Below are positions 12,881 to 41,456 of a stretch of DNA of 54,410 nt, in pieces. Each line of letters starts with the position of its first letter. The stretch's first letter is position 1. The position numbers and the translations under genes are program-made. Below the pieces are notes generated by a model. The model ran no database searches, was not told the DNA's origin, and saw nothing but the letters and a program-made list of their open reading frames with translations. Source of the DNA: Verrucomicrobiota bacterium (GTDB taxonomy: Bacteria; Verrucomicrobiota; Verrucomicrobiia; Opitutales; Seribacteraceae); the NCBI GenBank assembly GCA_027622665.1, contig JAQBYT010000028.1, forward strand, positions 1 through 54,410. Reading direction: 5' to 3'.

Positions 12881-13579
12881 TTACTCTTCCACGAATTTGC
12901 CGTCGAGCATGGGAAGGCGGCGATCGCAGCGTTTTGCGAGCTCGGGATTGTGGGTGACTAAGATGACGGCGGGGCCGTCCTCTCGGGCGAATTTGAGAAG
13001 GAGGTCAAATACGCGATCGGAATTGGCGGCGTCGAGGTTGCCAGTGGGTTCGTCGGCCAAGATGAGGTCGGGAGAGTTGGCGAGTGCTCGGGCGATGGCT
13101 ACCCGTTGTTGCTCGCCGCCGGAGAGCTTGTTGACGAAGCGGTCGGCCTTATCGGCGAGGCCAAGATGGTCAAGAAACTTGTCGGCTCGGGCGAGAGCTT
13201 CTACGGCCGGTTTGCCTGCCTTGCGGAGGGGCAAGGCGACGTTTTCTCGTGCGGTGAATTCCTTAATTAGGAAGTGAAACTGAAAGACGAAACCAATGCT
13301 TTCGTTGCGGAGGGCGGTACGGGTGGGATCGTCGGCTTTAGTCATGGGCTTGCCGCGGAGGTATATTTCACCTGAGTCGGGCTGGTCAAGCAAGCCTAGG
13401 AGGTAGAGCATGGTGCTCTTGCCGCAGCCGGAAGGACCGACGATGGCGGTTACCTCCCCTGCCCTTGCCTCAAAGGATACGCCCCGAAGGGCTAACACCC
13501 TACCCTCGCCTTCCCCGAAGGAATGGCTCAGGTTTTCCACGCGAAGAATCGGCGTGTCGCCATGGACTTTATCGTTCAC
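12881..13579 (-). CDS. ABC transporter ATP-binding protein, LolD/MacB-NBD type
   Basis: GPSGCGKS, GFVFQFHFL, LSGGEQQRVAIARAL, ADEPTGNLD, VTH. Confidence 0.9.
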   Translation of the reverse strand: MNDKVHGDTPILRVENLSHSFGEGEGRVLALRGVSFEARAGEVTAIVGPSGCGKSTMLYLLGLLDQPDSGEIYLRGKPMTKADDPTRTALRNESIGFVFQFHFLIKEFTARENVALPLRKAGKPAVEALARADKFLDHLGLADKADRFVNKLSGGEQQRVAIARALANSPDLILADEPTGNLDAANSDRVFDLLLKFAREDGPAVILVTHNPELAKRCDRRLPMLDGKFVEE

Positions 13580-14823
13580 AAGGTTTCGCGGATGATTTTG
13601 GCTGGTTCTATGCGGGCTGCTCGACGGGCTGGTATCCAGCTGGCTATCCCCACGACGACGATGGCGATGGCGACGGCCCAGAGATAATGGGATATGTCCC
13701 AGTTTACCACGAAGCTATCGGTGGAGAATACTCCTCGTATGCGTAGGGGTATGCGTGAGATACCGAAGGTGGCGGCAGCGGCGAGGAGGCAGCCCAGGAC
13801 TATGCCCAAAGCAAGCACGAGAGCTCCTTGCCAGAGGAATATGCGGGAGACGTCTCCTGGAGTGAAACCCATGGAACGCAGGATGGCCACGTCGCGTGTC
13901 TTCTCGATGACCATGATGGCGAAGACGTTGAACATGCCCAGACCGGACAAGAGGATAATGGTGGAAACGGTGATGGCGGAGGAGACTCGGAGGGCTTTGA
14001 ATACGTCGAGCCACACTTTTTCCCGTTCCTGCCAACTGACCACGCGGTGCGCGAAAGTCTCCTGCATCTGGGCGGCCACGGCAGGCGCGTCTTCGGGTTC
14101 GCGAATCCCCACTTGAAAGACTGAGCCTCCGTGCGGATTGCGTAGAAAGGAGCGGGCGGTGGATAGATCGAGGTAGATGCGACTTTTGTCGATTTGACTG
14201 ACGCCTGTTTCGAATATGCCCGCTACGCGAAGGTGGAGCGACTCGTGGGAACCGGCTAGAATGACGCGATCACCGGGTTCCAGCCGAAGGCGTTCGGCGA
14301 TGCGGTTGCCCACAAGGATGCCCAGCCGGTCGTCCCGGAAGTCCTTTATTCCGCCCTGAATGACCTGATCTTCCAAATCCGATACGGCGATATGGTCACT
14401 TGCCCTTATGCCGTGTATGCGAACGGAGTGAGAGCGTGAACCCGTGTCGAGGACGCCGGCTCCCTCGAGAATTTCCGAAACGCCAGTGACTCCAGTGAAC
14501 TCCGCTGTCGCCTTTCGGAGTTCTTCGGGGTACTCGATGCCCTCGACGTAGCGGGCGCCTTCACGAGAGCGGAAAACAAAGCGCACCCGACCATCGTCGG
14601 AGACCTTGGTCACAGTACCGTCTACGTCTTGAAAGCGATCGGATACTCGAATGGCGCCATTCGTACCGAGAATTGTGCGAATGAAGAAGGTCTCGAAACC
14701 GGAAGTCTGGGCTTGAGTAACGATGAAGAAAGCTATTCCGAACACGATACCGAGCAAGCTCATCCCCATAGCCCGTTTTCGGGCCATCACGTATCGCAGG
14801 GCGACTTGAAGCGACAGGATCAC
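13576..14823 (-). CDS. ABC transporter permease, LolC/E-FtsX-MacB type
   Basis: TM1, large periplasmic domain, then three TMs with EKTRDVAILRSMG and PARRAARIEP. Confidence 0.88.
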   Translation of the reverse strand: MILSLQVALRYVMARKRAMGMSLLGIVFGIAFFIVTQAQTSGFETFFIRTILGTNGAIRVSDRFQDVDGTVTKVSDDGRVRFVFRSREGARYVEGIEYPEELRKATAEFTGVTGVSEILEGAGVLDTGSRSHSVRIHGIRASDHIAVSDLEDQVIQGGIKDFRDDRLGILVGNRIAERLRLEPGDRVILAGSHESLHLRVAGIFETGVSQIDKSRIYLDLSTARSFLRNPHGGSVFQVGIREPEDAPAVAAQMQETFAHRVVSWQEREKVWLDVFKALRVSSAITVSTIILLSGLGMFNVFAIMVIEKTRDVAILRSMGFTPGDVSRIFLWQGALVLALGIVLGCLLAAAATFGISRIPLRIRGVFSTDSFVVNWDISHYLWAVAIAIVVVGIASWIPARRAARIEPAKIIRETL

Positions 14824-15941
14824 TTGCCACCGACGGGGACGGGTTTGACTTTCTGGCCGTCGCGAAAGAGGTGTGGGGTTTCCACGATTACCTGTTCACC
14901 TGCCTCCAGTCCATCGAGAATCTCGGCGGTGAGCAGGTTCCGAGCCCCTACCTTGACCTCACGTGCTTCGGCTACCCCGTTTATTACGACAAACACGGCG
15001 GAACCCATGAGTGCCTTGCGAGGTACGACGAGAGCATTTTTTCGTACGGACTTGATTATTTCGGCCCTCCCCGAACTTCCGGGTGTAAAACGTTCGTTTC
15101 CACTCTCGAGTTCGACGTATAACTTTCGACGTCCGGAGGCCGAGTCTACAGTGGGGGACAAGCGGGTGACGTTTCCCTCGAAGATTTGAGCTCCTTGGGA
15201 TAATAGCGTGACCGCGACTTCCTGTCCCTCTCGAACTCCGGCAAAGTCTTCTTCGTTTAAAGTCACCACAATCAGGCGATCGTTGGAGACTACTTGACCG
15301 AGATGGGCACTGGGGGAAATCATGTCGCCGGGTGCAACAAAAGAAAGGGTCATGAGTCCGGGAATGGGGCTTCGGATTTTCGTTTTTTTCAGGTTGGCCA
15401 GTAACCGTGCTTCCTGAATCCGAAAAGTTTTGGATTGTTCATCATTTGTAATCTTTTCTTGGGTCAACTGAGTTTCCAGCCGTTTGACCAGACTTTTCTT
15501 ATTCTCTAGGTCTGACAATGGCAATTTGCCTTGTTCTGCTAAGGCATTCCACGCTTGCATTTCGCGTTTTTCCGTTTCCAGTTGCATGGCGATTGCCGAA
15601 CCTGCTGCGATACGTTTCTCTTGGTGCTCACGGGCGACGTACAGTTGCTTCAATGATCGCTCGTCCTCGGTGGCGTCGAGGGTGAGCAAGGTTGAATTCT
15701 CTTCCACGGCAATGGGTTTCCCGTTGGGCAGCATGATTGTGTTGGTCACGATTCCCGAAACACTTGAACGCAGATCGTGGGTTCGTTCCGCAAGTACAAG
15801 CACATTTCCCGGAACGCCATCACGAACCGTTCCTATCACGACGGGCTTCACGATTACCTCGGGGATCGCACTTACGATCAACCACCAACAAAGAATAGAT
15901 AATGCCCCCAAGGGCAGAGCAACCTTAATCAATAGCTTCAT
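14820..15941 (-). CDS. Efflux periplasmic adaptor (MFP, MacA/HlyD-like)
   Basis: N-terminal TM, lipoyl halves flanking a coiled hairpin (IRSPIPG), ALVVPRKAL, GLEAGEQVI. ATG 15941 preferred. Confidence 0.85.
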   Translation of the reverse strand: MKLLIKVALPLGALSILCWWLIVSAIPEVIVKPVVIGTVRDGVPGNVLVLAERTHDLRSSVSGIVTNTIMLPNGKPIAVEENSTLLTLDATEDERSLKQLYVAREHQEKRIAAGSAIAMQLETEKREMQAWNALAEQGKLPLSDLENKKSLVKRLETQLTQEKITNDEQSKTFRIQEARLLANLKKTKIRSPIPGLMTLSFVAPGDMISPSAHLGQVVSNDRLIVVTLNEEDFAGVREGQEVAVTLLSQGAQIFEGNVTRLSPTVDSASGRRKLYVELESGNERFTPGSSGRAEIIKSVRKNALVVPRKALMGSAVFVVINGVAEAREVKVGARNLLTAEILDGLEAGEQVIVETPHLFRDGQKVKPVPVGGK

Positions 15942-16017
15942 GGAGTATGAACAGGGAACCAGTCCCGGAAAAAAGACCATTTAAGCCGCGATTCTTCAAT
16001 TTGTCAAAGACAGGTTA

Positions 16018-17358
16018 CTAATGAGTTTCTTCAATGTGCAGGTTGTACTGCGCTCGTACGTTTAGGTAGTCGACCACGGTTCGAATAAGTGAAAGGCGGC
16101 TTTGATCAAGAGAAAGTCGAGATGAGAAAAATGCATCCGGGGTGATCCTGTTTCGATCAAACTCAATGCGACTCTTTTCAAAGCGGTCCTCGGACGCACC
16201 TAACAGTTGGCGACTGGAATCGATTGTCTGGGCACGCGTTACCAGGTATTCGCGCAAACTCCGGGCTTCCAATTGGAGGTGCCTAGTTTCCCTTTCCAGT
16301 TGAATTTCGTATCGTCTCTTACGAGCCATCGCTGCTCGCTTTTCACCTCGACTTTGCGATGCATCGAAAAGGGCCCAGTTTGCTTCAAGACCGATAGTGA
16401 AATTGTTGCGATCCACTGAAGATCGACTATCAGCAAGGTCGATCTTGTCCTGATGAAAACCTCCAATCAAGTTCAGTTTTGGTCGCAAGGCGGACTTGGC
16501 TATGATAATTCGTTGGTTTTCGGCCTCTATGGCACTATCGATGTTTTTAAGTGCAGTCGAAGTTGTGTTGCTAGCGAGAATGGGAAGATTGAGGCCAAAT
16601 CGATGTGTTTGGGCAAAGTCGCGAAAATCGTCCGAAATAGTAAGGTCGAGGCCACCCACACTTCCCGAATCCTCCATGAAGATTCGGGTGTTTCGGGCAA
16701 GTTTTCGTTTCATTTCCGCAAAGTTTATTCTTTGTTGGAGCACAATAATTTTTGCCTCCGAAACAGATAATTCAGTAACGAGACCAAGGCGCATACGTTC
16801 TTTCATTCCATCGAGATTGGATTCAGCCAGTTCCATGCTTCTACGGGTCAACTCGATTTCGTAGGTGGATAGAACGAGTCCGAGGTAATCTACACGGATA
16901 CGATCTAGGAAGTTTCTTCTGAAATCTGAAAAAGAAGCAGAACTTGATGATTCGGACAATTCCGCCACTCTACTTCCCGCCTGCAAGGCTCCCCAGTGGT
17001 AGAGTGGTTTGCGAACGTATGCAGATGCCAAATAGCGATATTGCTGGTAGTAGTTGGCATTTGGACGATCCTCGTAAAGTGAATGACCATTTAAGCCAAC
17101 GGAGAGGCGGAATCCTCGCTTGGAGTCGGCTACCATACGATTGGCGGTAGCCTCGTTTACCTTTTCACGTTCCTGAAGCAGAATAGGGGCATTCGCTTCA
17201 ACGCTATTCAGGACGGCACTTAGAGAAGGAAAAAATGATTCAGCTGTTTCAGTATAAGATGTATGTGTGCCGTTTTTATCTTCTGCCTGTCCATGGGAGT
17301 CTAGAGACGATGACATCGAAACAACCGACCACGACAGGATGTAAAGGAAGCGGAACAT
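16018..17358 (-). CDS. TolC-family outer membrane efflux protein
   Basis: Signal peptide, two OEP-like halves (KPLYHWG; RPKLNL...WALFD), long amphipathic helices; directly upstream of the MFP gene. Confidence 0.8.
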   Translation of the reverse strand: MFRFLYILSWSVVSMSSSLDSHGQAEDKNGTHTSYTETAESFFPSLSAVLNSVEANAPILLQEREKVNEATANRMVADSKRGFRLSVGLNGHSLYEDRPNANYYQQYRYLASAYVRKPLYHWGALQAGSRVAELSESSSSASFSDFRRNFLDRIRVDYLGLVLSTYEIELTRRSMELAESNLDGMKERMRLGLVTELSVSEAKIIVLQQRINFAEMKRKLARNTRIFMEDSGSVGGLDLTISDDFRDFAQTHRFGLNLPILASNTTSTALKNIDSAIEAENQRIIIAKSALRPKLNLIGGFHQDKIDLADSRSSVDRNNFTIGLEANWALFDASQSRGEKRAAMARKRRYEIQLERETRHLQLEARSLREYLVTRAQTIDSSRQLLGASEDRFEKSRIEFDRNRITPDAFFSSRLSLDQSRLSLIRTVVDYLNVRAQYNLHIEETH

Positions 17359-17461: not shown

Positions 17462-18139
17462 TCAGTCGCCTTTAAAGGCGTCTTTGTACATGTCCTTCAA
17501 TTGGGCACCCGTCCACTGGTCTTTTTGCGCGGAGGCTTCATCTCGGAAGGTAGCGACCTGTTTCTCTGTGACCTCCGAAGCGTCGTGCCCCCAAGCCTTG
17601 CGGGCATAAGAGACTACGCTGGCGATCTCTCGATCATTCAAAGGTTGTGGCGGCATGTTAACCGTTGCCACAGTGCCATACTTTTTACCAAGGACTTCGA
17701 TTTCGCCTTTCAATCCCCTCAATACGATTTTTGTAATGATTCCGGGATCAGTCGTGGCCCACTTAGAACCGACGAGGGGGGGGAACAAGTCTTTGCCCAT
17801 TCCATCGGGGTTGTGGCATGAGGCGCATCGACTGTTAAATAATTTTTTGCCTCCGGCCAACTTACGCTTCATTCGTTTGGCTTCCTGTTCTTCGGGAGTC
17901 AATGAAATCTCCGGGGCGGGCGGATGAACCCGAAAGTGATTAGTGCTGTGAGCTAGTTGGATTGCGCAGAAAAAAACGAGACATCCGAAGAGAAAAACGA
18001 AAACAAGAGGTGCCTGCAGAAAGTGCTTTGTCGGAGGGTGTTTTTCTCGGCCGAGCTCGGCATGGACATTGACGAGTTCCTTATCACTCATCTCCGAGTT
18101 AGAGTCTTTTTTTACAACCTTTTTCTTCGGAGTGCTCAT
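17462..18139 (-). CDS. Membrane-anchored monoheme cytochrome c
   Basis: One TM, CASCH, FPPLVGS, distal NMPP; ATG 18139 overlaps the upstream stop (ATGA). Confidence 0.88.
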   Translation of the reverse strand: MSTPKKKVVKKDSNSEMSDKELVNVHAELGREKHPPTKHFLQAPLVFVFLFGCLVFFCAIQLAHSTNHFRVHPPAPEISLTPEEQEAKRMKRKLAGGKKLFNSRCASCHNPDGMGKDLFPPLVGSKWATTDPGIITKIVLRGLKGEIEVLGKKYGTVATVNMPPQPLNDREIASVVSYARKAWGHDASEVTEKQVATFRDEASAQKDQWTGAQLKDMYKDAFKGD

Positions 18140-19281
18140 TTGGAGTCTCCCTTCAATTCTGCGACCGTCCACATTTGCATCGGTGCCCTACCCGCGACAG
18201 TTGATCTAACCGTTGCTACTTCTGCTGAAGAAACTGACGATGCAGAGTTTCCCCAATCGTTGCGGACATAGGTCAACACATCCGCAATCTGTTGATCCGT
18301 AAGGGCCCCCGGGGGAATGCCGGGGGGAGGCATGGCTGAAGTGTATACCGTTCCCTTTACTTTTACCGGGCCCATTAAGCCGAACATGGCTATCTTGATT
18401 AAAGTTGGCTTGTCTCCCAATACCCATTCGGATCCCGCAAGCGGGGGGAACTGTCCGGGCAAGCCGAGACCTGTCGATTGGTGGCAGGTAAAGCACATAC
18501 CACCGCCAGGGGCAGCCTTCATGTAGATTTCCTTACCGGAAGCTATTTGGTCTGAGAGCCACTTCGGGAGTGCGGCGGCACTTGCGTTAACATCGGAATG
18601 GTATTCACCATGATCATCTTCCTTGACTTCGACAAATGCCATTTCAGGCAATTCGTAGTTTTGTCCGAGCGATTGCAGGTAAGAGACGATCTTTTGAGCC
18701 CGAAGAGTAGGAAATATATGCCGTGAGGTTTCACTCTCAAGATGACCGGAGTGATCGCTGTGATCATCATGGACTTCGATGGTACCGCTAGTTGCTTCAT
18801 CTTTAACTTCAAAGAGAAAAGGACTCGGCGGGCATATGGACCCGGGGACGGTTGCTTGCGGATCGAACAGATGACGATGAAGCCACTCGTCTGTAAACCC
18901 CCTAAGTCCGACATTGGCCAGATCAGGCCCGATACGAGTGTTTCCCAGGAGGACATTGTCCTGCAGGATGTAATCTCTAGCCACGGAAGGCCTTTTACCC
19001 CACTTTCGCTCGACGTCGAAGCCGGATTCGGTGAGGCGAACTTGCTGAGTATGGCAAGACATGCACCCGAGGGATATGTATTCCTCTGCACCCTGCTTGG
19101 CTATGCCGGGGAGATCCTTAGGAAACAAATCGGCACCAGCGGGTATGGAACCGTCTTCCTCGAGAACCTCTGCCGTCGGTTCGAGATCCCCGAATTGACT
19201 ACGGGCTCCAACAATGAACGCCAGCCAAGAGACGAACAATGTGAGAAGAGTTCCGAACGAGAAGGTGAAAAGGTTGTTCAT
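18136..19281 (-). CDS. CcoO/FixO-like cytochrome fused to a second cytochrome c domain (diheme)
   Basis: N-terminal TM, GCMSCHTQQVR, RIGPDLANVG, WLHRHLFDP (CcoO signature); His/acidic linker; second domain CFTCH...FPPLAGS...AMPP. Confidence 0.88.
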   Translation of the reverse strand: MNNLFTFSFGTLLTLFVSWLAFIVGARSQFGDLEPTAEVLEEDGSIPAGADLFPKDLPGIAKQGAEEYISLGCMSCHTQQVRLTESGFDVERKWGKRPSVARDYILQDNVLLGNTRIGPDLANVGLRGFTDEWLHRHLFDPQATVPGSICPPSPFLFEVKDEATSGTIEVHDDHSDHSGHLESETSRHIFPTLRAQKIVSYLQSLGQNYELPEMAFVEVKEDDHGEYHSDVNASAAALPKWLSDQIASGKEIYMKAAPGGGMCFTCHQSTGLGLPGQFPPLAGSEWVLGDKPTLIKIAMFGLMGPVKVKGTVYTSAMPPPGIPPGALTDQQIADVLTYVRNDWGNSASSVSSAEVATVRSTVAGRAPMQMWTVAELKGDSK

Positions 19282-20690
19282 GATTTGCCCTCCTTCACGG
19301 AATCACCGGAAGGTTTGCTGCAGCAGAAGTTGATCGGACCACAGATTGATCGCCAAACATTGACGACGAAGACCAGTTGGGAAACACCCAGAAGGATGAA
19401 GGCGAACTCGGATATCAGGAAGTAGGGTTTTACTGCAGTGACTACGCTTTCCGCCCACGCCAATGAGGGTTGCTGGGCGAGGACGCCGTGTGTAAGACCT
19501 CCGATAAGGTAGGCTAGCAAAAGGGCCATTACTCCAAAGGCCGAAGTCCAGAAGTGAAAGGATGCGGCTTTCTCGCTCGTTTTGTTTCCGGTGATCCGAG
19601 GAAGCATGTAGTAGACCACACCGAATATGATCATGCTGAAGAATCCGTATACACGCTGATTGAAGTGAAATTCGTTGATAATGGAGAACTGAGTGATCTT
19701 GGCTACGGCGGGGAGTGAGAAAATAATCCCGATATAACTGGAAATAGTATATGAGATCGTACCGAATATAACGAACCGCAGCGGAAGGTTGTTCCAAACT
19801 TTACCAATGTCCTTGAATGCAGTGGCGTGAAAATTCGTAGACGCGACGGCGATCGGAAACACCATGGCGATGCTCATTACTGTTCCAATGGCAGGTATCC
19901 ACATTGGGAATGGACCGCCCTCAAGATGATGAAGACCTGACCATGGAGCCAAGAAAGCGATGCACCAGAAGCCGAAAATGGCCAGATAGTACTTTTCTAT
20001 CGGTCGCCCAAGTATCTTGGGGATAAGGTAGTAGGCAGAGCCTAGAGCTATTGGTGTAATCCATAGCCAAATAACGTTTTGCGAGTACCACATCGATACT
20101 ACGCTTTGCACTGTTCCGCGACCGGGATTTAACTCCAAACCTTGCCACGCTACCAGAAAAAGAGCGGGGAACCAAAGAAACGAAGCCAATACGAACCATT
20201 GTGTGACATAGGTCTCCCGCTTAACGCGAGATCGATGCAAGACGAAGATCATGGCAGCGATTACGAAATAGGACACCAACAGCGCCGGCCAAACGACAAC
20301 GGGCATTTCCATCAAGTCGGAAGAGGTCATGTGCCCGGCAAAGATTCCACCGAGTCCGAGTGTAATAGCTATGTTCCAAACCGCTCCTGCTACGATGAGA
20401 TAAAAGCGCCCTCGCACTTCAGCTTGTCCTAGACGAGCCAGTAACCAAATGCTTACGGCAAAAACTGCATTGGATGCCCAACCGTAAACGAATGCGTTGG
20501 TTTGGGCTGCCTTTACTTTTCCATAAGTTAGAAATTCGCAAGAACCCAAGAAAGTCGGGTCGGTGGACTTGGCTGCAACGACATAGGCTAAGGCAGCAGC
20601 CACCAGAAGCCATAGTCCTGCGGAAGCAAGGAAGAAGGATACGACTAATCGGGCGGACTTATCAATCAAGCTTTCGTTCGACTCGCTCAT
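19278..20690 (-). CDS. CcoN/FixN-like heme-copper oxidase subunit I homologue with degenerate metal ligands
   Basis: About 12 TMs colinear with CcoN (LTYG..., YVTQWF, YYLIPK..GRP, HHL, LRF, YYMLPR, HFW) but several ligands substituted; see findings. Confidence 0.88.
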   Translation of the reverse strand: MSESNESLIDKSARLVVSFFLASAGLWLLVAAALAYVVAAKSTDPTFLGSCEFLTYGKVKAAQTNAFVYGWASNAVFAVSIWLLARLGQAEVRGRFYLIVAGAVWNIAITLGLGGIFAGHMTSSDLMEMPVVVWPALLVSYFVIAAMIFVLHRSRVKRETYVTQWFVLASFLWFPALFLVAWQGLELNPGRGTVQSVVSMWYSQNVIWLWITPIALGSAYYLIPKILGRPIEKYYLAIFGFWCIAFLAPWSGLHHLEGGPFPMWIPAIGTVMSIAMVFPIAVASTNFHATAFKDIGKVWNNLPLRFVIFGTISYTISSYIGIIFSLPAVAKITQFSIINEFHFNQRVYGFFSMIIFGVVYYMLPRITGNKTSEKAASFHFWTSAFGVMALLLAYLIGGLTHGVLAQQPSLAWAESVVTAVKPYFLISEFAFILLGVSQLVFVVNVWRSICGPINFCCSKPSGDSVKEGKS

Positions 20691-21025
20691 TTTTCGTCCC
20701 CTTCCGTTCCGGTTTCATTGGACTCATCCGAGTCGGATGCTTTGTCTGAGGAGTACTCGTTCACTGTGCCCTGCATCACGCTTTCCAAGCTTGAATTCAT
20801 TTCGGTATGGGCCCTGTCGATTAATTCTGTGAAATTACCTTCTTCAGATCGATAGGTAGCCACCTTCTTCATTCTTTCGTTGATAACTTTATTGTCAACG
20901 GGTGCCAGTTCCTCGGTGGGTAGGCACTGTCGTAAAATAAAGAAAGCAAAAACTAGAACAGTCGCGACTATCAGCGAGAAAAAGACGCTGCAGCCATCGG
21001 CGCGCTGAAGTGTCGAGTTACTCAT
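20687..21025 (-). CDS. Single-TM hypothetical protein between actF and the ccoN-like gene
   Basis: Overlaps both neighbours; one hydrophobic helix followed by a charged helical region. Confidence 0.75.
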   Translation of the reverse strand: MSNSTLQRADGCSVFFSLIVATVLVFAFFILRQCLPTEELAPVDNKVINERMKKVATYRSEEGNFTELIDRAHTEMNSSLESVMQGTVNEYSSDKASDSDESNETGTEGDEK

Positions 21026-22328
21026 GGTAGTTGATTGAAGCCTTTATACGTGGATCTCGAACCGGTATTATTTCAGCATCTGATTCGCGATAGCTTTTGA
21101 GAACCGCCCAAATGCATAGACCGCCGACGCCGACCAAGGCAAAGAGTCCCCATATGAGCTGAGTCCCTAAGACGAATCGAATGTCATAACCAACGGGAGA
21201 TTCAGGATTGGGAATACGACCGGGAATGATGTTCCAATAGAGATCGAGCAAGTGGAAGCAAAGAATCCAACCAACTATCTTTAGGGTCTTGTGGGGTTCC
21301 ACCTTGTTTTTATACCAGAGCAAAGCGAGGAAGGGAACGAGGAAGTGACCGAATATCAATCCCATGGAGACCCAGAACCAACCCGTTCGCTCACCGGTGT
21401 TCGGATTGATTTCTCGAATCACGTACCAAAAAGTTTCTTCTGGGATGTTGGCGTAATAAATAAGAAAGTACTGGGAAAAACTAATGTAGGCCCAAAATAC
21501 GGTGAATGCCAAGGATAGGCAGGCAAGATCGTATTGATGTGCCTTGAAATTATAAAAGCCCCTCAAGTCCGTCCGAGTTGCGAGGACGAAGCAAACGATT
21601 ATGGCAACGGCCAAACCTGCCCGAATGGATGCAGCAAAGAACCAGACGCCAAACATGGTAGAAAACCAGTGGTATTCGAGACTCATGAACCAGTCGAAAG
21701 CACCAAAGGTAAGGGCAATGGCACAAGCAGGTAACCCCGCGGCAGCAATGTTGTGACCCCATTGGGTCCATTTGGAATCCCCGTCACGGTCTTGGGTGAA
21801 AGATACCTTGCGCATCCAATACGCCAAAGAGCAGAATATGGCGAAATAGCCAATGGTTCGAACGCTGAAGGAGAACACGTTGAGGTAACCACTTTTTTTC
21901 AGAAGCAATACGTCGTGCCCGACTTTGTGTACTTCACCTGCGACAGGGACGTCGCTGGCGGGGTTGACCCAGTTCCATAATACTCCTGCTTGATCGCCGC
22001 CAAACCAAACTACGAGAAGAAGAGGAAGGAAGCAGACTCCTAACCAAGGAAACGCCGCCAAGCAGTGTTCCATCTGACGTCTTACGACGGGTGTCCACTG
22101 GGAGTTGAATACTCGAAAAAGCATGATCAGCATGAGCATACCAATGGCGATGCTAAGCCAGAAAGCAGTACCCCACAACCATCCTAGAAATGGGTTCTTG
22201 TCGCCATTTGCGAGACCCATGAAAAGACCGATTAATCCGCCTCCGAGTCCAATGGCGGCAGCACCAAGGCACTTGGTGGATAAATCAGTCTTTTGACCAA
22301 GTATTCCAGTTGCTTCGTCGGCACTCAT
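21018..22328 (-). CDS. actF: Alternative complex III subunit ActF
   Basis: Polytopic; FDWFMSLEYHWFSTMFG, FWAYISFSQYFLIYYANIPEETFWY, DLYW motifs; operon position. Confidence 0.9.
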   Translation of the reverse strand: MSADEATGILGQKTDLSTKCLGAAAIGLGGGLIGLFMGLANGDKNPFLGWLWGTAFWLSIAIGMLMLIMLFRVFNSQWTPVVRRQMEHCLAAFPWLGVCFLPLLLVVWFGGDQAGVLWNWVNPASDVPVAGEVHKVGHDVLLLKKSGYLNVFSFSVRTIGYFAIFCSLAYWMRKVSFTQDRDGDSKWTQWGHNIAAAGLPACAIALTFGAFDWFMSLEYHWFSTMFGVWFFAASIRAGLAVAIIVCFVLATRTDLRGFYNFKAHQYDLACLSLAFTVFWAYISFSQYFLIYYANIPEETFWYVIREINPNTGERTGWFWVSMGLIFGHFLVPFLALLWYKNKVEPHKTLKIVGWILCFHLLDLYWNIIPGRIPNPESPVGYDIRFVLGTQLIWGLFALVGVGGLCIWAVLKSYRESDAEIIPVRDPRIKASINYHE

Positions 22329-22984
22329 TCGACTACCTCCAGTTTGCGCGCATATCCAACATAGGATTGCAAAGCTCTAACATAGAGAACAATTGCCCAG
22401 CGCTCCCTGGGGTTCAGTTTATCGGCAAGTCCTAGCATGATTTTAGATGCGGAGCCTTTTGAGATCGCATTGAAAATTTGACCGTCGGGCCATGGTTGTA
22501 AAGCTTCCAGGTATGTGGCATTGACACTGGGGTCGGATAGGTTTTTTGGCAATAATCCGAATTGAGCAGTGACGCCTCGACCGTTTCCATATCGTCCATG
22601 GCAGTTGCTGCAATGAATGTCGTACCCCTCTTTACCTTGCCTAATCAAAGCCATGTCCATTCCGATTTGTGCGGGAATTCGCGCGGTGAAGTTGCCGTCG
22701 GAATCCTTGCCTGTTCGAAGAACCTCAGAGCCAATATCGATGTCAGAGGAAAATACGTTTTCTAGGTCGATTGCGTTCCCTCGTACAACGGAACCAACAG
22801 GTGGCAGTCGGTCGGATCGACGATCCGGAAAAAGATTGTTCTCTGATTGTTCCAAAAACTTCAGTTGCCGATCCATATCGGGAAACACTTCTATAGGAGG
22901 GTTCTTCGATGTGTCTCCGCGGAATCCCAGGATCGAGATAACGGTAATAATGGCCAAAGCATAAATCCAAAGGAAGTATCTCAT
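22325..22984 (-). CDS. actE: Alternative complex III monoheme cytochrome ActE
   Basis: PIEVFPDMDRQ, R..PVGSVVRG, CSNCHG, RWAIVLYVRALQ. ATG 22984 sits 1 nt after the actD stop. Confidence 0.88.
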   Translation of the reverse strand: MRYFLWIYALAIITVISILGFRGDTSKNPPIEVFPDMDRQLKFLEQSENNLFPDRRSDRLPPVGSVVRGNAIDLENVFSSDIDIGSEVLRTGKDSDGNFTARIPAQIGMDMALIRQGKEGYDIHCSNCHGRYGNGRGVTAQFGLLPKNLSDPSVNATYLEALQPWPDGQIFNAISKGSASKIMLGLADKLNPRERWAIVLYVRALQSYVGYARKLEVVE

Positions 22985-22985
22985 A

Positions 22986-23558
22986 TCAAAACTCCTCCGG
23001 TTCGCGTATGAGACCAACGGACTTACCGCCAATATCCTTCAGGAAATCTGCGGTTTCGTCATCCTCGAATTTTGGATCTTCCACCTCGATGACAATCATG
23101 AACTTGTCATCTCCGGTACGACCGAACTTTGGGTGCTCGAAAACGGGATGATTATGTCTTGGCAGTCGGTTAAGAAAAAACATGCCGAACAAGGTTCCGA
23201 ATGCGGCAAACAAAATAGTGAGCTCGTAAAAAACGGGAAAAGGGAAAACCGGACTAAAAAACGGTTTTCCGCTGGCGATGAGGGGGTAGTCAAACGCATT
23301 CATGTACCATACGATAAACATGCCAGTTAAAAAACCTGTGACTCCGCCCGCCAAAGTGAAGCGTGGAACCTTGGAGCGTACGGGAAAGCCCTTGTCATCC
23401 AAACCGTACATTTGTACGTCTAGCCCGTGTATGGGAATCGGTGTGTAACATTCCCAACTGGTATAGCCGGCATCCCGTACCTTAGCGGCCGCGATATAGA
23501 TCTCACTAGCGGAATTAAAAGCCGCAGTCAGCCCGTATTTTGTGCCGTTATTCGCCAT
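22986..23558 (-). CDS. actD: Alternative complex III subunit ActD (DUF3341)
   Basis: YTPIPIHGLD, DYPL..SGKP, ELTILFAA; two TMs; operon position. Confidence 0.9.
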   Translation of the reverse strand: MANNGTKYGLTAAFNSASEIYIAAAKVRDAGYTSWECYTPIPIHGLDVQMYGLDDKGFPVRSKVPRFTLAGGVTGFLTGMFIVWYMNAFDYPLIASGKPFFSPVFPFPVFYELTILFAAFGTLFGMFFLNRLPRHNHPVFEHPKFGRTGDDKFMIVIEVEDPKFEDDETADFLKDIGGKSVGLIREPEEF

Positions 23559-23586
23559 TTTTGCGTAAAAAGAGTGATTGACCAGA

Positions 23587-25008
23587 TCAATGTTTCCCCG
23601 CGTGTGGATCTGCCATGGGGGTTACGGACTTCACTTCAGCCAAGGGCATGAGTGGAAGAAAACGAAGGAACAGAAGGAATAGCACCGAGAAAAACCCGAA
23701 AGTACCAAAGAATGTAAACAAATCGACGACTGTGGGTGAATAGTAACCCCAACTGGAGGGAAGGAAATCACGAGACAAGGTGGTGTTGGCTATAACAAAG
23801 CGTTCGAACCACATTCCTACATTGACGAATATGGAAATGACCCAAACTAGAGGTGTGTTTTCTCGTATTGCCTTGAACCAGAACAATTGCGGGCAGATGA
23901 CGTTGCAAGAAACCATGATCCAATAGGCCCACCAGTAGTTGCCGAAAGCACGATTGATAAAGGCAAATCCTTCATAGGAGTTAGCGCCGTACCATGCGAT
24001 GAAGAACTCCATGGAATAGGCGTAACCGACCAAGCTACCCGTAGCCAAGGTAATCTTGCACATGTTGTCTATGTGCTTTTGGTTGATAAGGTCGTGGAGA
24101 CCAAATACGGCGCGGACGGGCAGGAGAAGTGTCATAACCATTCCGAAACCCGAGAATATAGCACCCGCAACGAAATAAGGCGGGAAAATGGTGGTGTGCC
24201 AACCAGGTAGGTTGGCTATGGCGAAGTCAAACGACACGATGGTATGAACCGAAAGTACGAGTGGTGTGGAAAGCCCTGCCAAGAGCAGGTAGGCCATCTC
24301 GAAGTTTCGCCAGTGGGTGTTTGAATTGTTCCAACCCATGGAAAGGAATCCATAGAAGTACTTTCGCCACGCCTTTTTGGCTCGATCCCGCAAAACAGCG
24401 AGATCGGGTATCATGCCCATGTACCAAAAAAGAACGGACACAGTAAAGTAGGTCGACACGGCAAAAACATCCCATTCCAAAGGGCTCTTGAATTGAGGCC
24501 AAATGTTGTTTGCGTTGGGAATGGGAAACAGCCACCATGCGAACCATACCCGACCGAGGTGAAACAGTGGGAAAATACCGGCGCACATAACGGCAAACAC
24601 GGTCATGGCTTCTGATCCGCGATTAATAGACGTTCTCCACTTTTGCTTGAGGAGGCACAGAATTGCTGAAATCAGCGTGCCGGCATGACCTATGCCGATC
24701 CAGAAAACAAAGTTTACAATAGCCCAACCCCAGTTGACAGGATTGTTGTTCCCCCATTCGCCTACTCCCGATGACACAAGAATGAGAAGCCCCATTCCGG
24801 TGAAACTGGCTATGCCCAGTGCAAAAATGAAGCACCACCACCACCAATTTGGCGTCTTCGCCTCAACTATTCCGCAGATCTTATCTGTAATCCAATGAAG
24901 ACTCCGCTTGTTCAGAACAAGTGGTTGTTCATCCAATTTGGCTGGATTGATTTTTTTAAGAATCTCTGATGATTGCTCAACCACATCTGTAGTTGCCGAA
25001 CTCATCAA
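23587..25008 (-). CDS. actC: Alternative complex III quinol-oxidising subunit ActC (NrfD/PsrC family)
   Basis: [76 protein letters not shown]. Confidence 0.95.
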
Positions 25009-28000
25009 TGGTGAGCACTCCCATTAGTCTCAGTAGGATTATCGCCATGATTGTCGTGACCATGATCTTCGTGAGAAGGGTGAGCCCGCTCATGATATTC
25101 GCGTGAGGAATAAGGTTTGTCGGTTGCATCCGGCATGTCCGGGTTCGGGTTTCGGATGCGAGCCATGAAGGTAGTGCGGGGTCGCGTATCGAGGTATCCC
25201 AGAACCGAGTAATCTCGCGGATTGGTTTTCAATTTTGAAACTTTGCTGTCGGGGTCGGAAATATCGCCGAATTCTATGGCGTCCGCCGGGCAAACCTGTT
25301 GGCAAGCGGTTTTAATTGTCCCGTCAGGAACCTTAAGTTTATCATGAATATCTAATTCCGCGCCATTTTTGCCCGTGGAAAACTTCTCACTTCGTTGAGC
25401 CTTAACTTTGGTACTAATTTTAGCTTCTTGAATTCGTTGTACGCAGTAAGTACATTTTTCCATTACGCCTCTCATCCTTACGGAGACGTCGGGATTTTTC
25501 ACAAGGGTCGGCAGCTTGGGGTTCTCATCTCCTAAAGGACCAAGATAGAGTTCATCCGTTTTTCTTTTATTCCAATCAAAGAAATTGAAGCGACGTACCT
25601 TGTATGGGCAGTTGTTGGCGCAATAACGGGTGCCAACGCAACGATTGTAGGCCATTACATTCAGTCCCTCTTCGTCATGAACCGTAGCAGCTACGGGACA
25701 GACCTGTTCGCAGGGAGCGTTTTCACAGTGCATGCATGCCACACCTTGGAAATTGACTTGCACGTCGGAAGGGATTTCGGCTCCTTCACGTTCGGTGGAA
25801 CTGAAGTAGCGGTCTAGGCGAATCCAGTGCATTTCACGACCGCGTAGCACTTGATCCTTACCTACGACGGGAATGTTGTTTTCGCTTTGACAGGCAACGA
25901 CACACGCATTGCAACCAGTGCAAAGGTTCAAGTCTATGGACATTCCCCATTGATGGAGTCCGGTGTGATCCGGGTGTTCGTAGGCTGAGTGTCCACGCGG
26001 TGTGGTTTGGGACTTGTGTTTAAGGCCCTCGTTGTCTTCCCTGCCATATGTGAGAGGGGAGTGCGATTCCACGCCCATTTCGGAGGCAAAATCCTCCTTG
26101 CCCGCGTACTCGTCGGCATTTGCCTCTCGAACGATCGCACGGCCTTCCATCGACCAGTGTTCTTGCACATTGGCGAGGGTTTGCCTACTTTTCGTAGTGG
26201 AAAGTGTTACTCCTGAAGCAATGCGGGAAGAATCAGAACCGAGAAGAGGGTATCCATCGTAGCCAGTGCCCTCACCTACTCTTCCGACTGTTCTTCTACC
26301 CATTCCGAGGGTGGCAATTAAGGTGTAGTCCGCCAATCCCGGTTGGACGTGAAGTGGTCCTTCGATGGAGGAACCGCCTGCCAAGGTAAGCTTCACCACG
26401 GGAGCATCTTGTTTACCAAGATCGAATACGGCGGTGTCGGGTGCGACCTCGCCATTTTTGTTCAGCATGGTCGGCTTGGGAAGTAGGTTAAGACCTTTGT
26501 GCTTCTTCTCTAATTCCGCAGCTAGAACCGGACTGACGAGGATCGCATTGTCCCAAGTCAGCTTGGATATCGGATCGGGGCATTCCTGCATCCAGCCATT
26601 GTTTGCGTAGCGTCCGTCCCATGCGTGAAAGTCAGGAACTAAAAGTACTTCAAGTGAATCGGCTGTGGGCGCTTTGGGTAGGTCGTCCTTGAGATCGGCC
26701 AGTTTATCAAAATCATACACTGGCGAGACAAAGGAAACTTTGCGAGGAAGTAGACCGATCCGAAGAAAGTCATCAAAAGAACTTCCATCAGACAGTTCGT
26801 TGAAGGTTTCCTGAACCAATGAATGCGAAGACTTTTCTTCACCCGCTACAATTGAAAGGACATCAAGTTCGGAAAAGGTTTCGAAGAGCGGTTCGATCAA
26901 TGGTTGCACTGGCAAGTGCGCGGAAAGATCCCAAGTCGTCCCGTCGCCCCAGCATTCCAAATAGTGGGATGCGCCAATATGCAAATTGGAGAATTCGGAA
27001 GTTTCATCGATGGACGAACCAAACCTGATGGTAAGATCGACCTTTTGGGCCAAGGCCGACCAATCTAACTTTGCCGGACTTGTAAAAGTAGGGTTGCCGC
27101 CTAAGAATATTAAGGTGCCGATTTCTCCCGCCTCGATGGCTTCGACTAAATCAGATATATTCGAAGAGTCGTTACTTGAAAGTTCTGCGTATTGAACAGT
27201 TTCCCCGTTAGCACCTAGCGCTTGATTGATCGCGTAAGTAAGTACATGCGCTTCCTCGGGCAAATGATTACCTGCGAGCACCAAGGATTGGCCTTTATGA
27301 GCGACTAAATCGATTGCAGTTTCTTTGCACCACGAGGAGTCCAAGCCTGCCTTGGCAGCGCGTTCTTTCAAAAGCTCTATCACGGAGTCACTCGATTTTT
27401 CCGTAAGTGAAAGAACTTCGGCAGCGACGGCACTGGCGAATGCAACCATTTGAGAAGAGGAAAGGCGCAGTCTGTGGTCGGCGGCGGCACCGGTGAGGGT
27501 GAGGTCGGACTCCACAGAGTAGAGGCGATTCATTTTCTTGGAGTCCGCGGCACTCAAGACCTTTCGACCTTTTGTGAACTCACGGGTGAGCCGGAGGTGG
27601 TCCGGTTCGCGCATTCCCAGAAAGTCGCAATCAATGGAGAGTATGCGTTTAGCCTTTTTCAATCTGGCCAAGGAACGCAAGGGACCTGTCGACAATGCAT
27701 TGCCCAAAGCTTTTGCTGCAGTCGATGAGTCGATGGGATCGTATTCGGACCAGATTACGCCCTTGTCGCGTAACTTCGCAGCAAGCTTTGCTCGAGCTGG
27801 GGAACTGGATGATTCCGCAAGAACGGCTACCTTGCCTTTGGCTAATCTGTCGGGAGAGAGAAAACTTTCAAGTGTCTTTACGGCATCACTCTTTAGGGTC
27901 TTTTCCCAAGCAAATGTTTTTTTGTCACCAGTGCCCGAAGTGCTGGACTCATAACTACCTTGGGCGCGGTCGGGATCATAGAGACCTAGTACGGTAGCTT

Positions 28001-28412
28001 GCGAATGGACGTCGGTACCACCACCCGCTGGCAAATAACTTGGGTTGCCCTCTATCTTTGTAGGTCTTGACTGGTGACTCTCGACAATCAGAGGGACATG
28101 TCCAAAGGAAGTGGGAAGCGAAGTGGAATAGTAGTTGGGGATTCCGGGAATGACTTCCTCTGGTGATTTGCCATAGGGCATAATTGCCTGCTCCGGCCGT
28201 CGACAGCCTGTCATTCCGAATCCGGCTAGGCCAAAAGAGGCGGCCATTACCTTCATGAAATTGCGTCGCTGGACACCATCAATCAGGGAAGCTCCTTCAG
28301 GGAATTCTCGTTCAACCCAAGTGCGGAACGCCGGAGTTTCAGCCAGATCGTCCAAGCTTTTCCAATAGCGAGAGCCTGAAGGTCCCTTTCCGTTCGGATT
28401 TTTCATAGTCAT
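25005..28412 (-). CDS. actB: Alternative complex III subunit ActB (molybdopterin-fold domain + Fe-S domain)
   Basis: YWKSL start, twin-arginine RRNFMK...GC signal, RPTKIEGNP; Cys groups CTGCNAC...C, CMHC..PC..VC, CVGTRYC...C, CTYC...CQQVC. ATG 28412 overlaps the actA stop. Confidence 0.95.
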
Positions 28413-29149
28413 CGATGGCATCCGCTGCAACTGACAGGAGGATGTATGCCCCACTTCTCCTTGAGATTTAACCCTGCGTGGGCTTGAATCGCGACGGGGT
28501 CTTCACTATCAGTGAGAGTGGGCAACCACGAAAGGTCAGTGACTTTGTCCAAGGGGCGAAGGGCATCTTCTGGGTTGCGATGGCAATCCAAGCAAAATGC
28601 CATGCTCAAATGCTTGGCGTGAGAAACTTCTTTCATCTGGTCGATCCTGCCGTGGCATGCTACGCAACTTACGCCACGATTTACATGTATGGCGTGATTG
28701 AAGTAAGCATAGTCTGGCACTTTATGAATACGAGTCCAAGGTACTGCAGGACCTTGGCTAAGTATGCCGTCGTTATTTGCGTCTTCTCCTTTGTTTAAGA
28801 TACCGTCCTTGTTTTTGTCTTCCCCGTAATAACTCGCTCGAATTGGCCCTAAGGCAGGTGAGTCAGCCTTGATCGTCTTGTGGCAACTCATGCAAATATT
28901 GGCTGCGGGAACACCTGCATGGGCAGACTTGTCGACGCCATGATGGCAATATCGACAATCCAGTCCCAGTTCGCCTACGTGGAAACTGTGATCGTATGAT
29001 ACGGGCTGGGTGGGTTGATAGCCAACCCGCGTATACTTTGGAGTGGCGTAATAATTTATGCCCGCAGATACGCCGACTCCAATTAGCCCTAAGCCGACAA
29101 TGACCTTTAAAGGTATTGTATTAGTCCAGCGAGGAAAGATGTTGCTCAT
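28409..29149 (-). CDS. actA: Alternative complex III pentaheme cytochrome ActA
   Basis: N-terminal TM, QPVSYDH..H, five CxxCH (CRYCH, CMSCH, CVACH, CLDCH, CSGCH), PDYAYFNH..H. Confidence 0.95.
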   Translation of the reverse strand: MSNIFPRWTNTIPLKVIVGLGLIGVGVSAGINYYATPKYTRVGYQPTQPVSYDHSFHVGELGLDCRYCHHGVDKSAHAGVPAANICMSCHKTIKADSPALGPIRASYYGEDKNKDGILNKGEDANNDGILSQGPAVPWTRIHKVPDYAYFNHAIHVNRGVSCVACHGRIDQMKEVSHAKHLSMAFCLDCHRNPEDALRPLDKVTDLSWLPTLTDSEDPVAIQAHAGLNLKEKWGIHPPVSCSGCHR

Positions 29150-29654: not shown

Positions 29655-31883
29655 ATGAAATATCATTCCCAAAGATGCGACGTTGTTGTAGTGGGAGCAG
29701 GTTTGGCTGGAATCTGCGCAGCCGTTACTGCAGCGCGAACCGGAGCTCTCGTCTCGTTGGTTGAGGCTCGCTCGAGTCTTGGTGGTCGAATTGGCCGGGA
29801 AGTTCGCTTCCCGCTGGAGGATGGTTCGGTTCCAAACTTCGCCTATTTTCGGGAAACGGGCTTATTGGATGAAATTTTACTCATGGACTTGGCTTCTAAT
29901 TTGGATGGGACATACGAAGGTCGAGATCGAGTATTGAACGATTTCGTTCGTTCTCAAGAGCGATTACTTTATTTCAATGATCTACCTGTAATCGAAGCTG
30001 AGTTGAACGAGCGAAAGGATAAAATTCTTTCCGTTACCGGCATAGATGTATTAGGTCGTTCTCGTCGACGTTTCATGGCGCCAGTTTACATCGACAGTAC
30101 AGGCAACGGTTCGCTCGCCATACTTGCGGGAGCTCCTGGCGAATACGGTACTGAGCGTGAGGAATATACAAAGTTGTCCCCTTTGTTTGGCTCTGGGGTA
30201 ACGGCACCCGAAAGTCGTTTTGCCATTACAATGGAAATACGATCGGCAGAAAAGCCTATCCCTTTTGCCGCGCCTTCATGGGTTCGATTGCGTTGGGAAG
30301 ACAATGAACCGGCTGCCCAATTACCCTTTTCCGAGTCTTTCCTGTTTGCCCCGCAAGGGCTACATCTTGCGGAGTGGGCGGCAAAGCACAGGGGGGGATC
30401 TCCTCCCGAGGCTTCCGAAATTGCCTATGCCGCTTGGGATTATATCAAGAATCGTTCTCCATTCCTTCATCTTGCGGAAAAACTCTTGTTGTCATGGTAT
30501 TCATTGACCGTTTTACGCTCAGATGGCTTCCGGATAAAAGGTGAAGAATCACTAACCCCGGAGGAAATGGAAGCCAGTCGTCCAAGGGGAGATCATGTGG
30601 CCATGGCACGTGCGCCTCTTGATGGACCTGCTGCTCTACTTTCATCGCCTCTTGGGCGAATAGCCCTGCCGGGACAATATGGAATACCTCTATCTTGTCT
30701 TTATTCCAAAAAGGTTCGTAACTTGATGGTCGCCGGCGAGCACGCATCTGTCACACACAGGGTTTCGGCATGCCTTCGCCATCCGCCTGCTTCAGCTCAA
30801 CTCGGGGAGGCGGTTGGTTTAGTGGCCGCCAGAGCCGCCTTGGATCGCCGTCAGCCAAGAACCTTGGCCAAACCCAACTATGTCGAAGGCATTAGGCGGG
30901 ATTTGGCGCGATTGAATCACTCGTGCGGTCCGGATCCTGTTGAGGACATTGACGATCTTGGCCGAGTTGCAAAAATCATCGCTTCTACTACCCTTCCCTG
31001 TTGCTCTCTGGAGTATCCCGTGCTGCCTGTGACTGCTTCTCCGGATAATAGATTGCTTCAATTTCCTGTGATTACCGACTCGATCGAGGGGATTGATCTC
31101 TATATTGAGGTTCGAGAAGATTGCAGGCTAAAGGTGCGTTTGCTAGAGGGAGCGAGCAACGGTTCGACCATCCCCGGTGATTGCCTGGACACTGCATCAG
31201 TCGATTTATCAAAAAGCTCCGGTCAATGGGTTGAGTTGCCACTGCAATCTAAAATAAAATCAGCAGGTTGGCATTTTCTTGAAATAGAGGGAAATATGCA
31301 TGTGATTCCCTTTCTTCAGGACAACGCGCCCGTCGGAGTTCTCAGGCATTCGCCAATTCCTGATAATAAGGCCACTTTGAGGAATCCTTATTCAAGCTAT
31401 TGTCCGGTTCTTCCGGCACTACCAGGGCCCGGTTCGGGTTACTGCTTTCGCCTCTCTCCGAAGCAACCCGTCTATGGTGTTGAAAACATTGCCGATGGGC
31501 ATTCTAGGCCGGGTAGAATGCCGCATATTTGGATTTCGGAACCTACCGACTTCAAGTTTCCCGAATTTCTTGAGTTGCATTGGGAGAAACCCCAAACAAT
31601 TTCTAGAGTCGATCTCGTTTTCGATGCTTGCCTGGAATATGCATTCCCCCCCCATCCCTCGGTTTTGCCACGGATGACTATCCCGACCATCCCTCGTTCT
31701 TATAGAATCTATAGATTAGGCGAGAGTGGTCATTGGCGTGAACTGCTTGCGGTAGAGGACAACTTGCTTGGGTTCCGTTCTCACCAGTTCGACCCCATAG
31801 AAACCAAGGCAATTGAAATAGAAATTCTGTCCACTCACGGTCATCATCGAGCCCAAATTTATCAAACTCGCATTTATCCTTAA
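29655..31883 (+). CDS. FAD-dependent oxidoreductase family protein (PF12831-like) with C-terminal beta-sandwich domains
   Basis: DVVVVGAGLAGICAA, LGG, IDSTGNG..A..AGA, YGIPL.CLYS...NLMVAG; discoidin-like tail (WIS...LEL.W...SRVDL.FD). Confidence 0.75.
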   Translation: MKYHSQRCDVVVVGAGLAGICAAVTAARTGALVSLVEARSSLGGRIGREVRFPLEDGSVPNFAYFRETGLLDEILLMDLASNLDGTYEGRDRVLNDFVRSQERLLYFNDLPVIEAELNERKDKILSVTGIDVLGRSRRRFMAPVYIDSTGNGSLAILAGAPGEYGTEREEYTKLSPLFGSGVTAPESRFAITMEIRSAEKPIPFAAPSWVRLRWEDNEPAAQLPFSESFLFAPQGLHLAEWAAKHRGGSPPEASEIAYAAWDYIKNRSPFLHLAEKLLLSWYSLTVLRSDGFRIKGEESLTPEEMEASRPRGDHVAMARAPLDGPAALLSSPLGRIALPGQYGIPLSCLYSKKVRNLMVAGEHASVTHRVSACLRHPPASAQLGEAVGLVAARAALDRRQPRTLAKPNYVEGIRRDLARLNHSCGPDPVEDIDDLGRVAKIIASTTLPCCSLEYPVLPVTASPDNRLLQFPVITDSIEGIDLYIEVREDCRLKVRLLEGASNGSTIPGDCLDTASVDLSKSSGQWVELPLQSKIKSAGWHFLEIEGNMHVIPFLQDNAPVGVLRHSPIPDNKATLRNPYSSYCPVLPALPGPGSGYCFRLSPKQPVYGVENIADGHSRPGRMPHIWISEPTDFKFPEFLELHWEKPQTISRVDLVFDACLEYAFPPHPSVLPRMTIPTIPRSYRIYRLGESGHWRELLAVEDNLLGFRSHQFDPIETKAIEIEILSTHGHHRAQIYQTRIYP

Positions 31884-40388: not shown

Positions 40389-40470
40389 GAAAAGTCAAAG
40401 ACTGACTAATAAAGAGAAATAAATACAGGTTTTCAAGCTTATTGCCTAGTCAACAGCTCGCCGTATCGAC

Positions 40471-41382: not shown

Positions 41383-41456
41383 AGTAAAATTATCAATAGA
41401 GACAAAAGTTAATGGCAAGTTAAATGCACGAAAGCTTTTGAGCGAATCTTTGCAAG

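Follow-up and report, generated by a model that had tools for sequence, protein, structure and literature searches.

What does an alternative complex III (ACIII) operon do with an oxidase subunit that has lost its active site? The question is raised by a 54,410-nucleotide window, the whole of one contig (C15; JAQBYT010000028.1) of a 4.5 Mb, 93.5% complete verrucomicrobial genome. Here the minus strand carries ten open reading frames (ORFs), arranged head to tail between 29149 and 17462, whose stops and starts overlap or abut. They encode ActA to ActF, a 112-aa membrane protein, a homologue of the cbb3 oxidase subunit CcoN, a CcoO-cytochrome c fusion and a membrane cytochrome c, the same ten packed genes that an initial annotation of this DNA had listed. 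The sequence shows an intact ACIII and a CcoN without its catalytic set, with every c-haem motif retained and strong selection; elsewhere the genome encodes a caa3 oxidase. The explanation favoured here, at a probability of roughly 60%, is that CcoN is kept as a sealed pseudoenzyme scaffold, which would hold c-type cytochromes and relay ACIII electrons towards an A-type oxidase. The relatives that carry names are marine Opitutales at about 70% identity, including Candidatus Seribacter sulfatis and Candidatus Chordibacter forsetii (Candidatus Seribacteraceae), and the family is one that we take to be GTDB MB11C04.

The CcoN homologue (470 aa; 19278..20690, minus strand) belongs to proteins that databases label cbb3 subunit I, and its TIGR00780 score of 129 bits falls short of the cut-off of 583. 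Alignment to solved CcoN, in P. stutzeri numbering, identifies the substitutions H60Q, H207Q, Y251A and H347N (Q63, Q204, A248 and N344 in the window protein), with H257, H258 and H345 retained as H254, H255 and H342. We take H60 and H347 to be the low-spin haem b histidines, H207, H257 and H258 the CuB histidines, H345 the high-spin haem b3 histidine and Y251 the cross-linked tyrosine of helix VII; literature searches found no source paper giving this CcoN residue and K-channel numbering. On that assignment, both low-spin haem ligands, one of the three CuB ligands and the catalytic tyrosine are lost. Four of the seven active-site residues are replaced in all 128 sequences of the window clade, with Q63, N344 and the alanine at the Y251 position each found in 128/128. 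H342, at the haem b3 ligand position where haem may bind, is also present in 128/128, and apart from H254N in two sequences the three histidines are kept (126-128/128). Judging from these residues, the module is almost certainly not an O2 reductase, in agreement with the initial annotation's view that it is no normal oxidase. Nor does it match a nitric oxide reductase, since the low-spin histidines are missing and H207 is glutamine.

The predicted fold of the window CcoN is that of a haem-copper subunit I of the cbb3 type, with a mean predicted local distance difference test (pLDDT) of 92 and a template-modelling (TM) score of 0.89 to 3mk7_A. Both acidic residues of the Ca site are kept, as are T212, Y220 and Y314. 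At the positions that presumably line the K-type proton channel (T215, Y223, S240 and Y317), the window protein has Thr, Tyr and Tyr as in the standard enzyme and Ala (A237) at S240. The pairwise ratio of nonsynonymous to synonymous substitution rates (dN/dS) for ccoN, the check proposed earlier, is 0.039 over 26 non-independent pairs among 49 sequences; this indicates purifying selection like that on ActF (0.038) and ActD (0.039). The gene occurs with the same substitutions in all 56 named family loci, so the earlier worry that a canonical ccoNO had been dropped by misassembly does not hold.

Gene position is constant across Verrucomicrobiae: actF, the small membrane protein gene, ccoN, then ccoO and cytochrome c. 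The survey of act operons for canonical and degenerate ccoN, suggested by the initial annotation, finds both. Of the 108 distinct sequences compared, all seven residues are present in 31, another 55 belong to the window clade and 22 are dead in other ways; two further dead copies bring the last group to 24, with unrelated substitutions, and intact and dead copies are all whole ORFs. The intact orthologue, found in 31 other Verrucomicrobiae, sits at the same operon position, and in the CcoN tree all ACIII-linked copies form one branch, separate from 12 other ccoN sequences. On sequence evidence the window CcoN is an inactivated orthologue of intact ccoN and not a spare copy, because it is the same-position orthologue of the intact gene and the only ccoN, always weak-scoring, in 39/39 family genomes (each at least 85% complete). 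The idea of a degenerate second copy beside a canonical one is therefore abandoned. Within the order, ActD is found in 36 of 38 sampled genomes, and exactly those 36 carry a ccoN-like gene. The top 150 representatives at 50% identity include 136 that can be scored, 132 of them dead, a share inflated by their faster divergence.

ACIII-linked ccoN appears to have lost its ligands 4-10 times or more, with the gene staying whole. The minimum number of state changes is 4 on the CcoN tree, which used 14 clade rows of 81, and 10 on the 61-row ActBCDF tree, from which 13 short or redundant rows were dropped. The count is given as a range because an approximately unbiased test (29 rows) did not reject the ACIII-tree placement tried, in which one dead copy is moved next to the intact sister it has on that tree (p 0.059). 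A single origin for many of the dead Opitutales copies was considered but is weakly supported: the CcoN tree groups them at only 87-91 in the Shimodaira-Hasegawa-like approximate likelihood ratio test (SH-aLRT), on long branches.

Several variants of the gene order were seen along the way. In G170 (L166:11479-18046), about eight extra genes lie between actF and the small membrane protein gene. The divergent act cluster of genus g51 (L237:9209-11947 in G102; also L243, L244 and L246) has at its end an eroded fusion of CcoN, CcoO and cytochrome c (hhalign 72.5%, E 3e-5), in which Cys occupies the CcoO ligand site; 9/31 genomes match it, 2 of them over full length. A betaproteobacterial megaplasmid (L252:6815-9631) carries an intact ccoN-ccoO-cytochrome c set that is 33% identical to the window CcoN; this set is a possible sister subtype, as standard CcoN is only about 26% identical to the window protein.

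A genome-wide search, within the stated completeness, found no other ccoN, as the initial annotation had asked to be checked. The one other haem-copper subunit I is A-type and lies in the operon ctaB-coxB-coxA-coxC-coxD-ctaG on contig C60, whose caa3 oxidase has its His, Tyr, CuA and CxxCH motifs all present. This is the separate oxidase proposed earlier, and it fits the scaffold or electron-wire option. Across the 39 family genomes, none has a ccoN over the cut-off or a bd oxidase, and A-type coxA is found, whole or in pieces, in 38, including 31 over cut-off. The window genome also encodes (G000 C55:76035-78337) a Rieske protein and a 582-aa cytochrome b fused to a dihaem cytochrome c, a set the family often has in addition to ACIII. 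The initial annotation had noted that ccoG is missing from the window; this says nothing on activity, since ccoG was not found in 4/4 tested genomes whose only haem-copper oxidase is an intact ACIII-linked ccoN either. In G034, G060 and G221 (L058, L070 and L086) the intact ACIII-linked ccoN is the only haem-copper oxidase found. Neither bd nor ccoG was found in them, and maturation of this subtype therefore seems not to need CcoG.

The CcoO homologue (18136..19281, minus strand) has Cys150 where solved CcoO has the axial Met of its SKMP motif; it keeps its CxxCH and is fused to a second CxxCH domain, a class I cytochrome c with His267/Met317. Cys occupies the distal position in 49/49 family sequences, and CxxCH is retained in all 106 CcoO sequences. 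The Met-to-Cys change occurs only alongside dead CcoN (0/31 intact). The coordinated ligand changes in both subunits claimed by the initial annotation thus hold for the window family, but outside it 15/19 dead modules keep the CcoO Met. The last gene (17462..18139, minus strand; probable true start ATG 18139) encodes a membrane-anchored, c552-like class I cytochrome c (His/Met) in place of ccoP. Distal His/Met ligands are conserved in both class I domains (48/49; 48/51), which resemble Thermus c552, and the extra domain in CcoO was gained by fusion in the window clade. The AlphaFold model of the fusion (pLDDT 80) is haem-free and so cannot test Cys ligation. A model of the N-O complex scores 0.88 against 0.00 for the best control, above a mark that 116/157 solved and 2/215 mismatched pairs reach, with 97% contact agreement and partner pLDDT of at least 83; as solved cbb3 complexes exist, it shows likeness only and may reflect memory of them.

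These findings suggest how the module might work. In ACIII, as is established for the complex, menaquinol would be oxidised and electrons passed through ActA and ActE to the periplasmic side. An ancestral Verrucomicrobiae operon probably joined its own cbb3-type oxidase (CcoN, CcoO and cytochrome c) to ACIII. In the window lineage CcoN would then have lost catalysis, as its sequence indicates, and have been retained as a 12-helix membrane scaffold for CcoO and the c-type cytochromes beside ACIII, its proton channel closed by the Ser-to-Ala change. Electrons would leave through the His/Met haems of the CcoO C-terminal domain and the membrane cytochrome c and reach the caa3 oxidase, encoded elsewhere, at its CuA/haem c subunit. 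The His/Cys haem of CcoO is probably low-potential, with a structural or insulating role.

Two features go along with loss of the active site. The S240 position is Ser in 31/31 intact genomic copies (Ala 0/31) and Ala in 128/128 clade copies, 21/24 other dead copies (losses nested among intact relatives included) and 107/132 dead cluster representatives. This one-base change is the strongest shared shift in the alignment. It can be read as sealing of an idle proton channel, and common descent may account for part of the pattern. Of the genomes with other dead copies, 23/23 have an A-type oxidase (PF00115 above 420 bits), against 22/31 with intact copies. In five basal genomes (G170, G149, G119, G161 and G212; three dead, two intact) coxA lies directly downstream in the same cluster, and in G044 it likewise follows in the cluster, after coxB.

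A number of observations weigh against the scaffold-relay explanation. Ala stands at S240 in one of 4 intact representatives, and the link between death and A-type oxidase is not significant once phylogeny is considered (8 independent pairs, sign test median p 1; underpowered), so that the naive Fisher p of 0.007 overstates it. In one class-level genome (G078) and in four further act operons, other-class ones included, the act genes run on into cox genes with no module between them, which indicates that ACIII does not always need it; in the available text of PMC8552683 and PMC5928083, ACIII of F. johnsoniae and R. marinus feeds A-type oxidases directly. The eroded N-O-c fusion persists in g51, where 0/5 genomes have a haem-copper oxidase over cut-off. 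A bc-type cytochrome b is present in 13/15 tested family genomes in all, the window genome among them, and could feed caa3 without ACIII. Residues at the predicted N-O interface are not clearly more conserved than others (clade 0.86 v 0.86; dead representatives 0.52 v 0.47, p 0.06), and binding and electron transfer in the module are predicted only.

Some of these points would suit an entrenched passenger, in which dead CcoN is needed only for assembly or stability of ACIII or its cytochromes and little flux passes through the module. Persistence of the module where no haem-copper oxidase is found and the presence of a bc complex agree with this, as does the potential of His/Cys haems, which lies several hundred mV below +198 mV and makes them a poor relay step (from the part of PMC9562282 available). 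The conserved distal ligands of the two class I domains and the cytochrome domain gained by fusion are hard to square with it, and bc-complex cytochrome b was not found in 13/23 genomes with other dead copies; the passenger account is doubtful. A still active O2 or NO reductase with relocated ligands would explain the kept fold and half-kept site, and several haem-copper families tolerate ligand changes (PMC11214002, in part). Both low-spin histidines and the tyrosine are gone, however, NOR families in the accessible sections of that paper retain a low-spin haem bound by at least one His, and its table gives C=0 and NOR=0 for four MB11C04 rows, which makes this very improbable. Neutral decay or assembly error can appeal to the long branches of the dead copies. 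It meets a dN/dS of 0.039, whole ORFs, identical substitutions in 128 sequences and an operon present in contigs from RNA runs of four studies; the selection and the shared substitutions refute it, and its chance is next to nil.

The alternative specific to the window clade is a residual site, with haem b3 on His342 and possibly a metal on His254/His255, isolated from incoming electrons and used for binding or sensing O2, NO or CO, or for new chemistry with the His/Cys haem. The clade keeps H254, H255 and H342 in 126-128/128 sequences, while each is found in 8-9% of 131 other dead representatives. Its cluster is the only dead one to retain H257, H258 and H345 together, which makes a gas-binding haem site possible. 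Both Ca-site acids, T212, Y220 and Y314 are kept, CcoO Cys is invariant (49/49), and the bulky invariant changes G208W, G346R, G431F and M324F suggest that one pocket, which they presumably line, has been filled. On the other hand, 217/470 columns are equally invariant in the clade, and against this background of 46% the three-His retention is suggestive of a haem b3 site but not proof. Only 21/61 catalysis-specific positions are kept, the three histidines would be retained by rough chance at 0.04, and 12/131 representatives retain as much overall. The sister genus has lost all three, two clade sequences have H254N, and no signalling domain is present. The residual site is a tentative proposal of low probability. 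Equally tentative is its fuller form, in which the marine Opitutales clade was re-tooled: low-spin pocket filled, channel sealed, CcoO His/Cys, and haem b3 with a two-His site left as an electron-insulated gas-binding centre on the ACIII-caa3 chain, sensing or buffering O2 or NO. If true, it would be the first haem-copper pseudoenzyme with a new cofactor job. The initial annotation's catalyst for another substrate is improbable for the family as a whole, given the free drift of ligand positions in other dead lineages; it may still apply to the window clade.

Genes for cbb3 are taken as markers of microaerobic respiration, a reading that looks wrong for this marine family, since its 39 genomes have no canonical ccoN and no bd; the family is probably without the low-oxygen enzyme that annotations imply. 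PMC8498564, PMC6688271 and bioRxiv 2024.01.15.574570, in their accessible sections, treat ACIII-adjacent verrucomicrobial cbb3 as a working oxidase, the first two as a high-affinity one. Since dead copies occur widely in Verrucomicrobiae, the cbb3 next to ACIII in cultured members should be examined again. The table of PMC11214002, a source seen in part, lists A=1 and C=0 for four MB11C04 rows and also gives C=0 to Methylacidiphilum fumariolicum, a species that reviews nevertheless credit with cbb3; these entries fit filtering of dead copies, and the sections available do not describe such copies. The matched live and dead pairs offer a natural experiment on ACIII electron hand-off, and the repeated Ser-to-Ala change an evolutionary test of the residue gating the C-family proton channel.

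The remaining operon genes, all on the minus strand, form a complete ACIII set, whose role as a quinol:cytochrome c oxidoreductase is predicted from the gene content. ActA, ActC, ActD and ActE each match their own Pfam family in profile searches. The pentahaem cytochrome c actA (28409..29149; Pfam/NCBIfam) has 5 CxxCH in 30/30 family copies. It is followed by actB (25005..28412; probable start ATG 28412), a molybdopterin-fold, iron-sulfur subunit with a twin-arginine translocation signal (E 1e-214 to 6f0k_B and 8k9e_B; TIGR04519), and by actC (23587..25005; ATG 25005), an NrfD-family quinol-site membrane subunit (PF03916; dN/dS 0.007). Next come actD (22986..23558; PF11821, 194 bits), the monohaem cytochrome c actE (22325..22984; ATG 22984; Pfam), with His and Met retained (Met in 45/45), and actF (21018..22328; E 2e-47 to 6f0k_F). 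The 112-aa protein with a single transmembrane helix (20687..21025) occupies the usual actG position and evolves fast (dN/dS 0.25); Pfam assigned no family, and its matches are unnamed Verrucomicrobiota clusters only. A conserved RA[DE]GC motif directly before its helix recurs in 40 small ORFs of family loci and is missing from three non-family counterparts inspected.

Scans for promoters and terminators did not rise above chance (16 v 13.9; 23 v 21.1). The operon is covered by contigs that come from the RNA runs of four studies, and the ccoN-ccoO junction is spanned by two of these contigs; they attest presence in RNA libraries, not a level or a single transcript, and since all four are contigs, depth was not used for ranking genes. 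Starting 103 bp after the operon, on the minus strand (12881-17358), are genes for an outer-membrane factor, an HlyD adaptor, a MacB/FtsX permease and an ABC ATPase, each present in 43-47/56 family loci and some also near act operons of another family. Divergent from actA on the plus strand (29655-31883) is a 742-aa FAD-dependent oxidoreductase found in 29/56 family loci. Further away lie two tandem HDOD-domain genes (39468-41418) and a 1151-aa protein with two FliD C-terminal domains (50912-54367).

A literature search, which did not cover subscription papers, found no published description of a ligand-less ACIII-linked CcoN, and the parts available of PMC13274419, PMC13608581, PMC6431628, PMC8361435, PMC10205796, PMC10556555, PMC4742706 and PMC8407424 hold nothing on dead copies. 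The repeatedly evolved ACIII-attached cbb3 pseudoenzyme is real and under selection, and was not found in print within that coverage. Its closest structural likeness is P. stutzeri CcoNOP cbb3 (3MK7), with which it shares the 12-helix CcoN fold (TM 0.89), a CcoO-type haem domain and a predicted N-O interface. It differs in the replacement of H60, H207, Y251, H347 and S240, in Cys for the CcoO Met, in the second cytochrome fused to CcoO and in a monohaem class I cytochrome instead of CcoP. The ACIII-cbb3 clusters of Opitutaceae and verrucomicrobial methanotrophs, as the available text of PMC8498564 and PMC6688271 presents them, have the same synteny, with act beside cbb3-annotated genes, whereas the gene is dead in the window family and, beyond that family, in 22 further sampled copies. 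The R. marinus ACIII-caa3 (PMC5928083) and F. johnsoniae ACIII-aa3 (PMC8552683) supercomplexes are alike in their ActA-F core and in electrons ending at an A-type oxidase; in the sections available, the link there is ActE or an extra ActA haem domain, with no dead oxidase between. The Cys at the distal c-haem position, where ligation is predicted, recalls the TsdA-type His/Cys cytochromes, whose haems have low potentials according to the accessible part of PMC9562282, but in the window, where no thiosulfate pocket and no tie to a sulfur pathway came to light in an analysis not aimed at them, the scaffold that carries it is CcoO.

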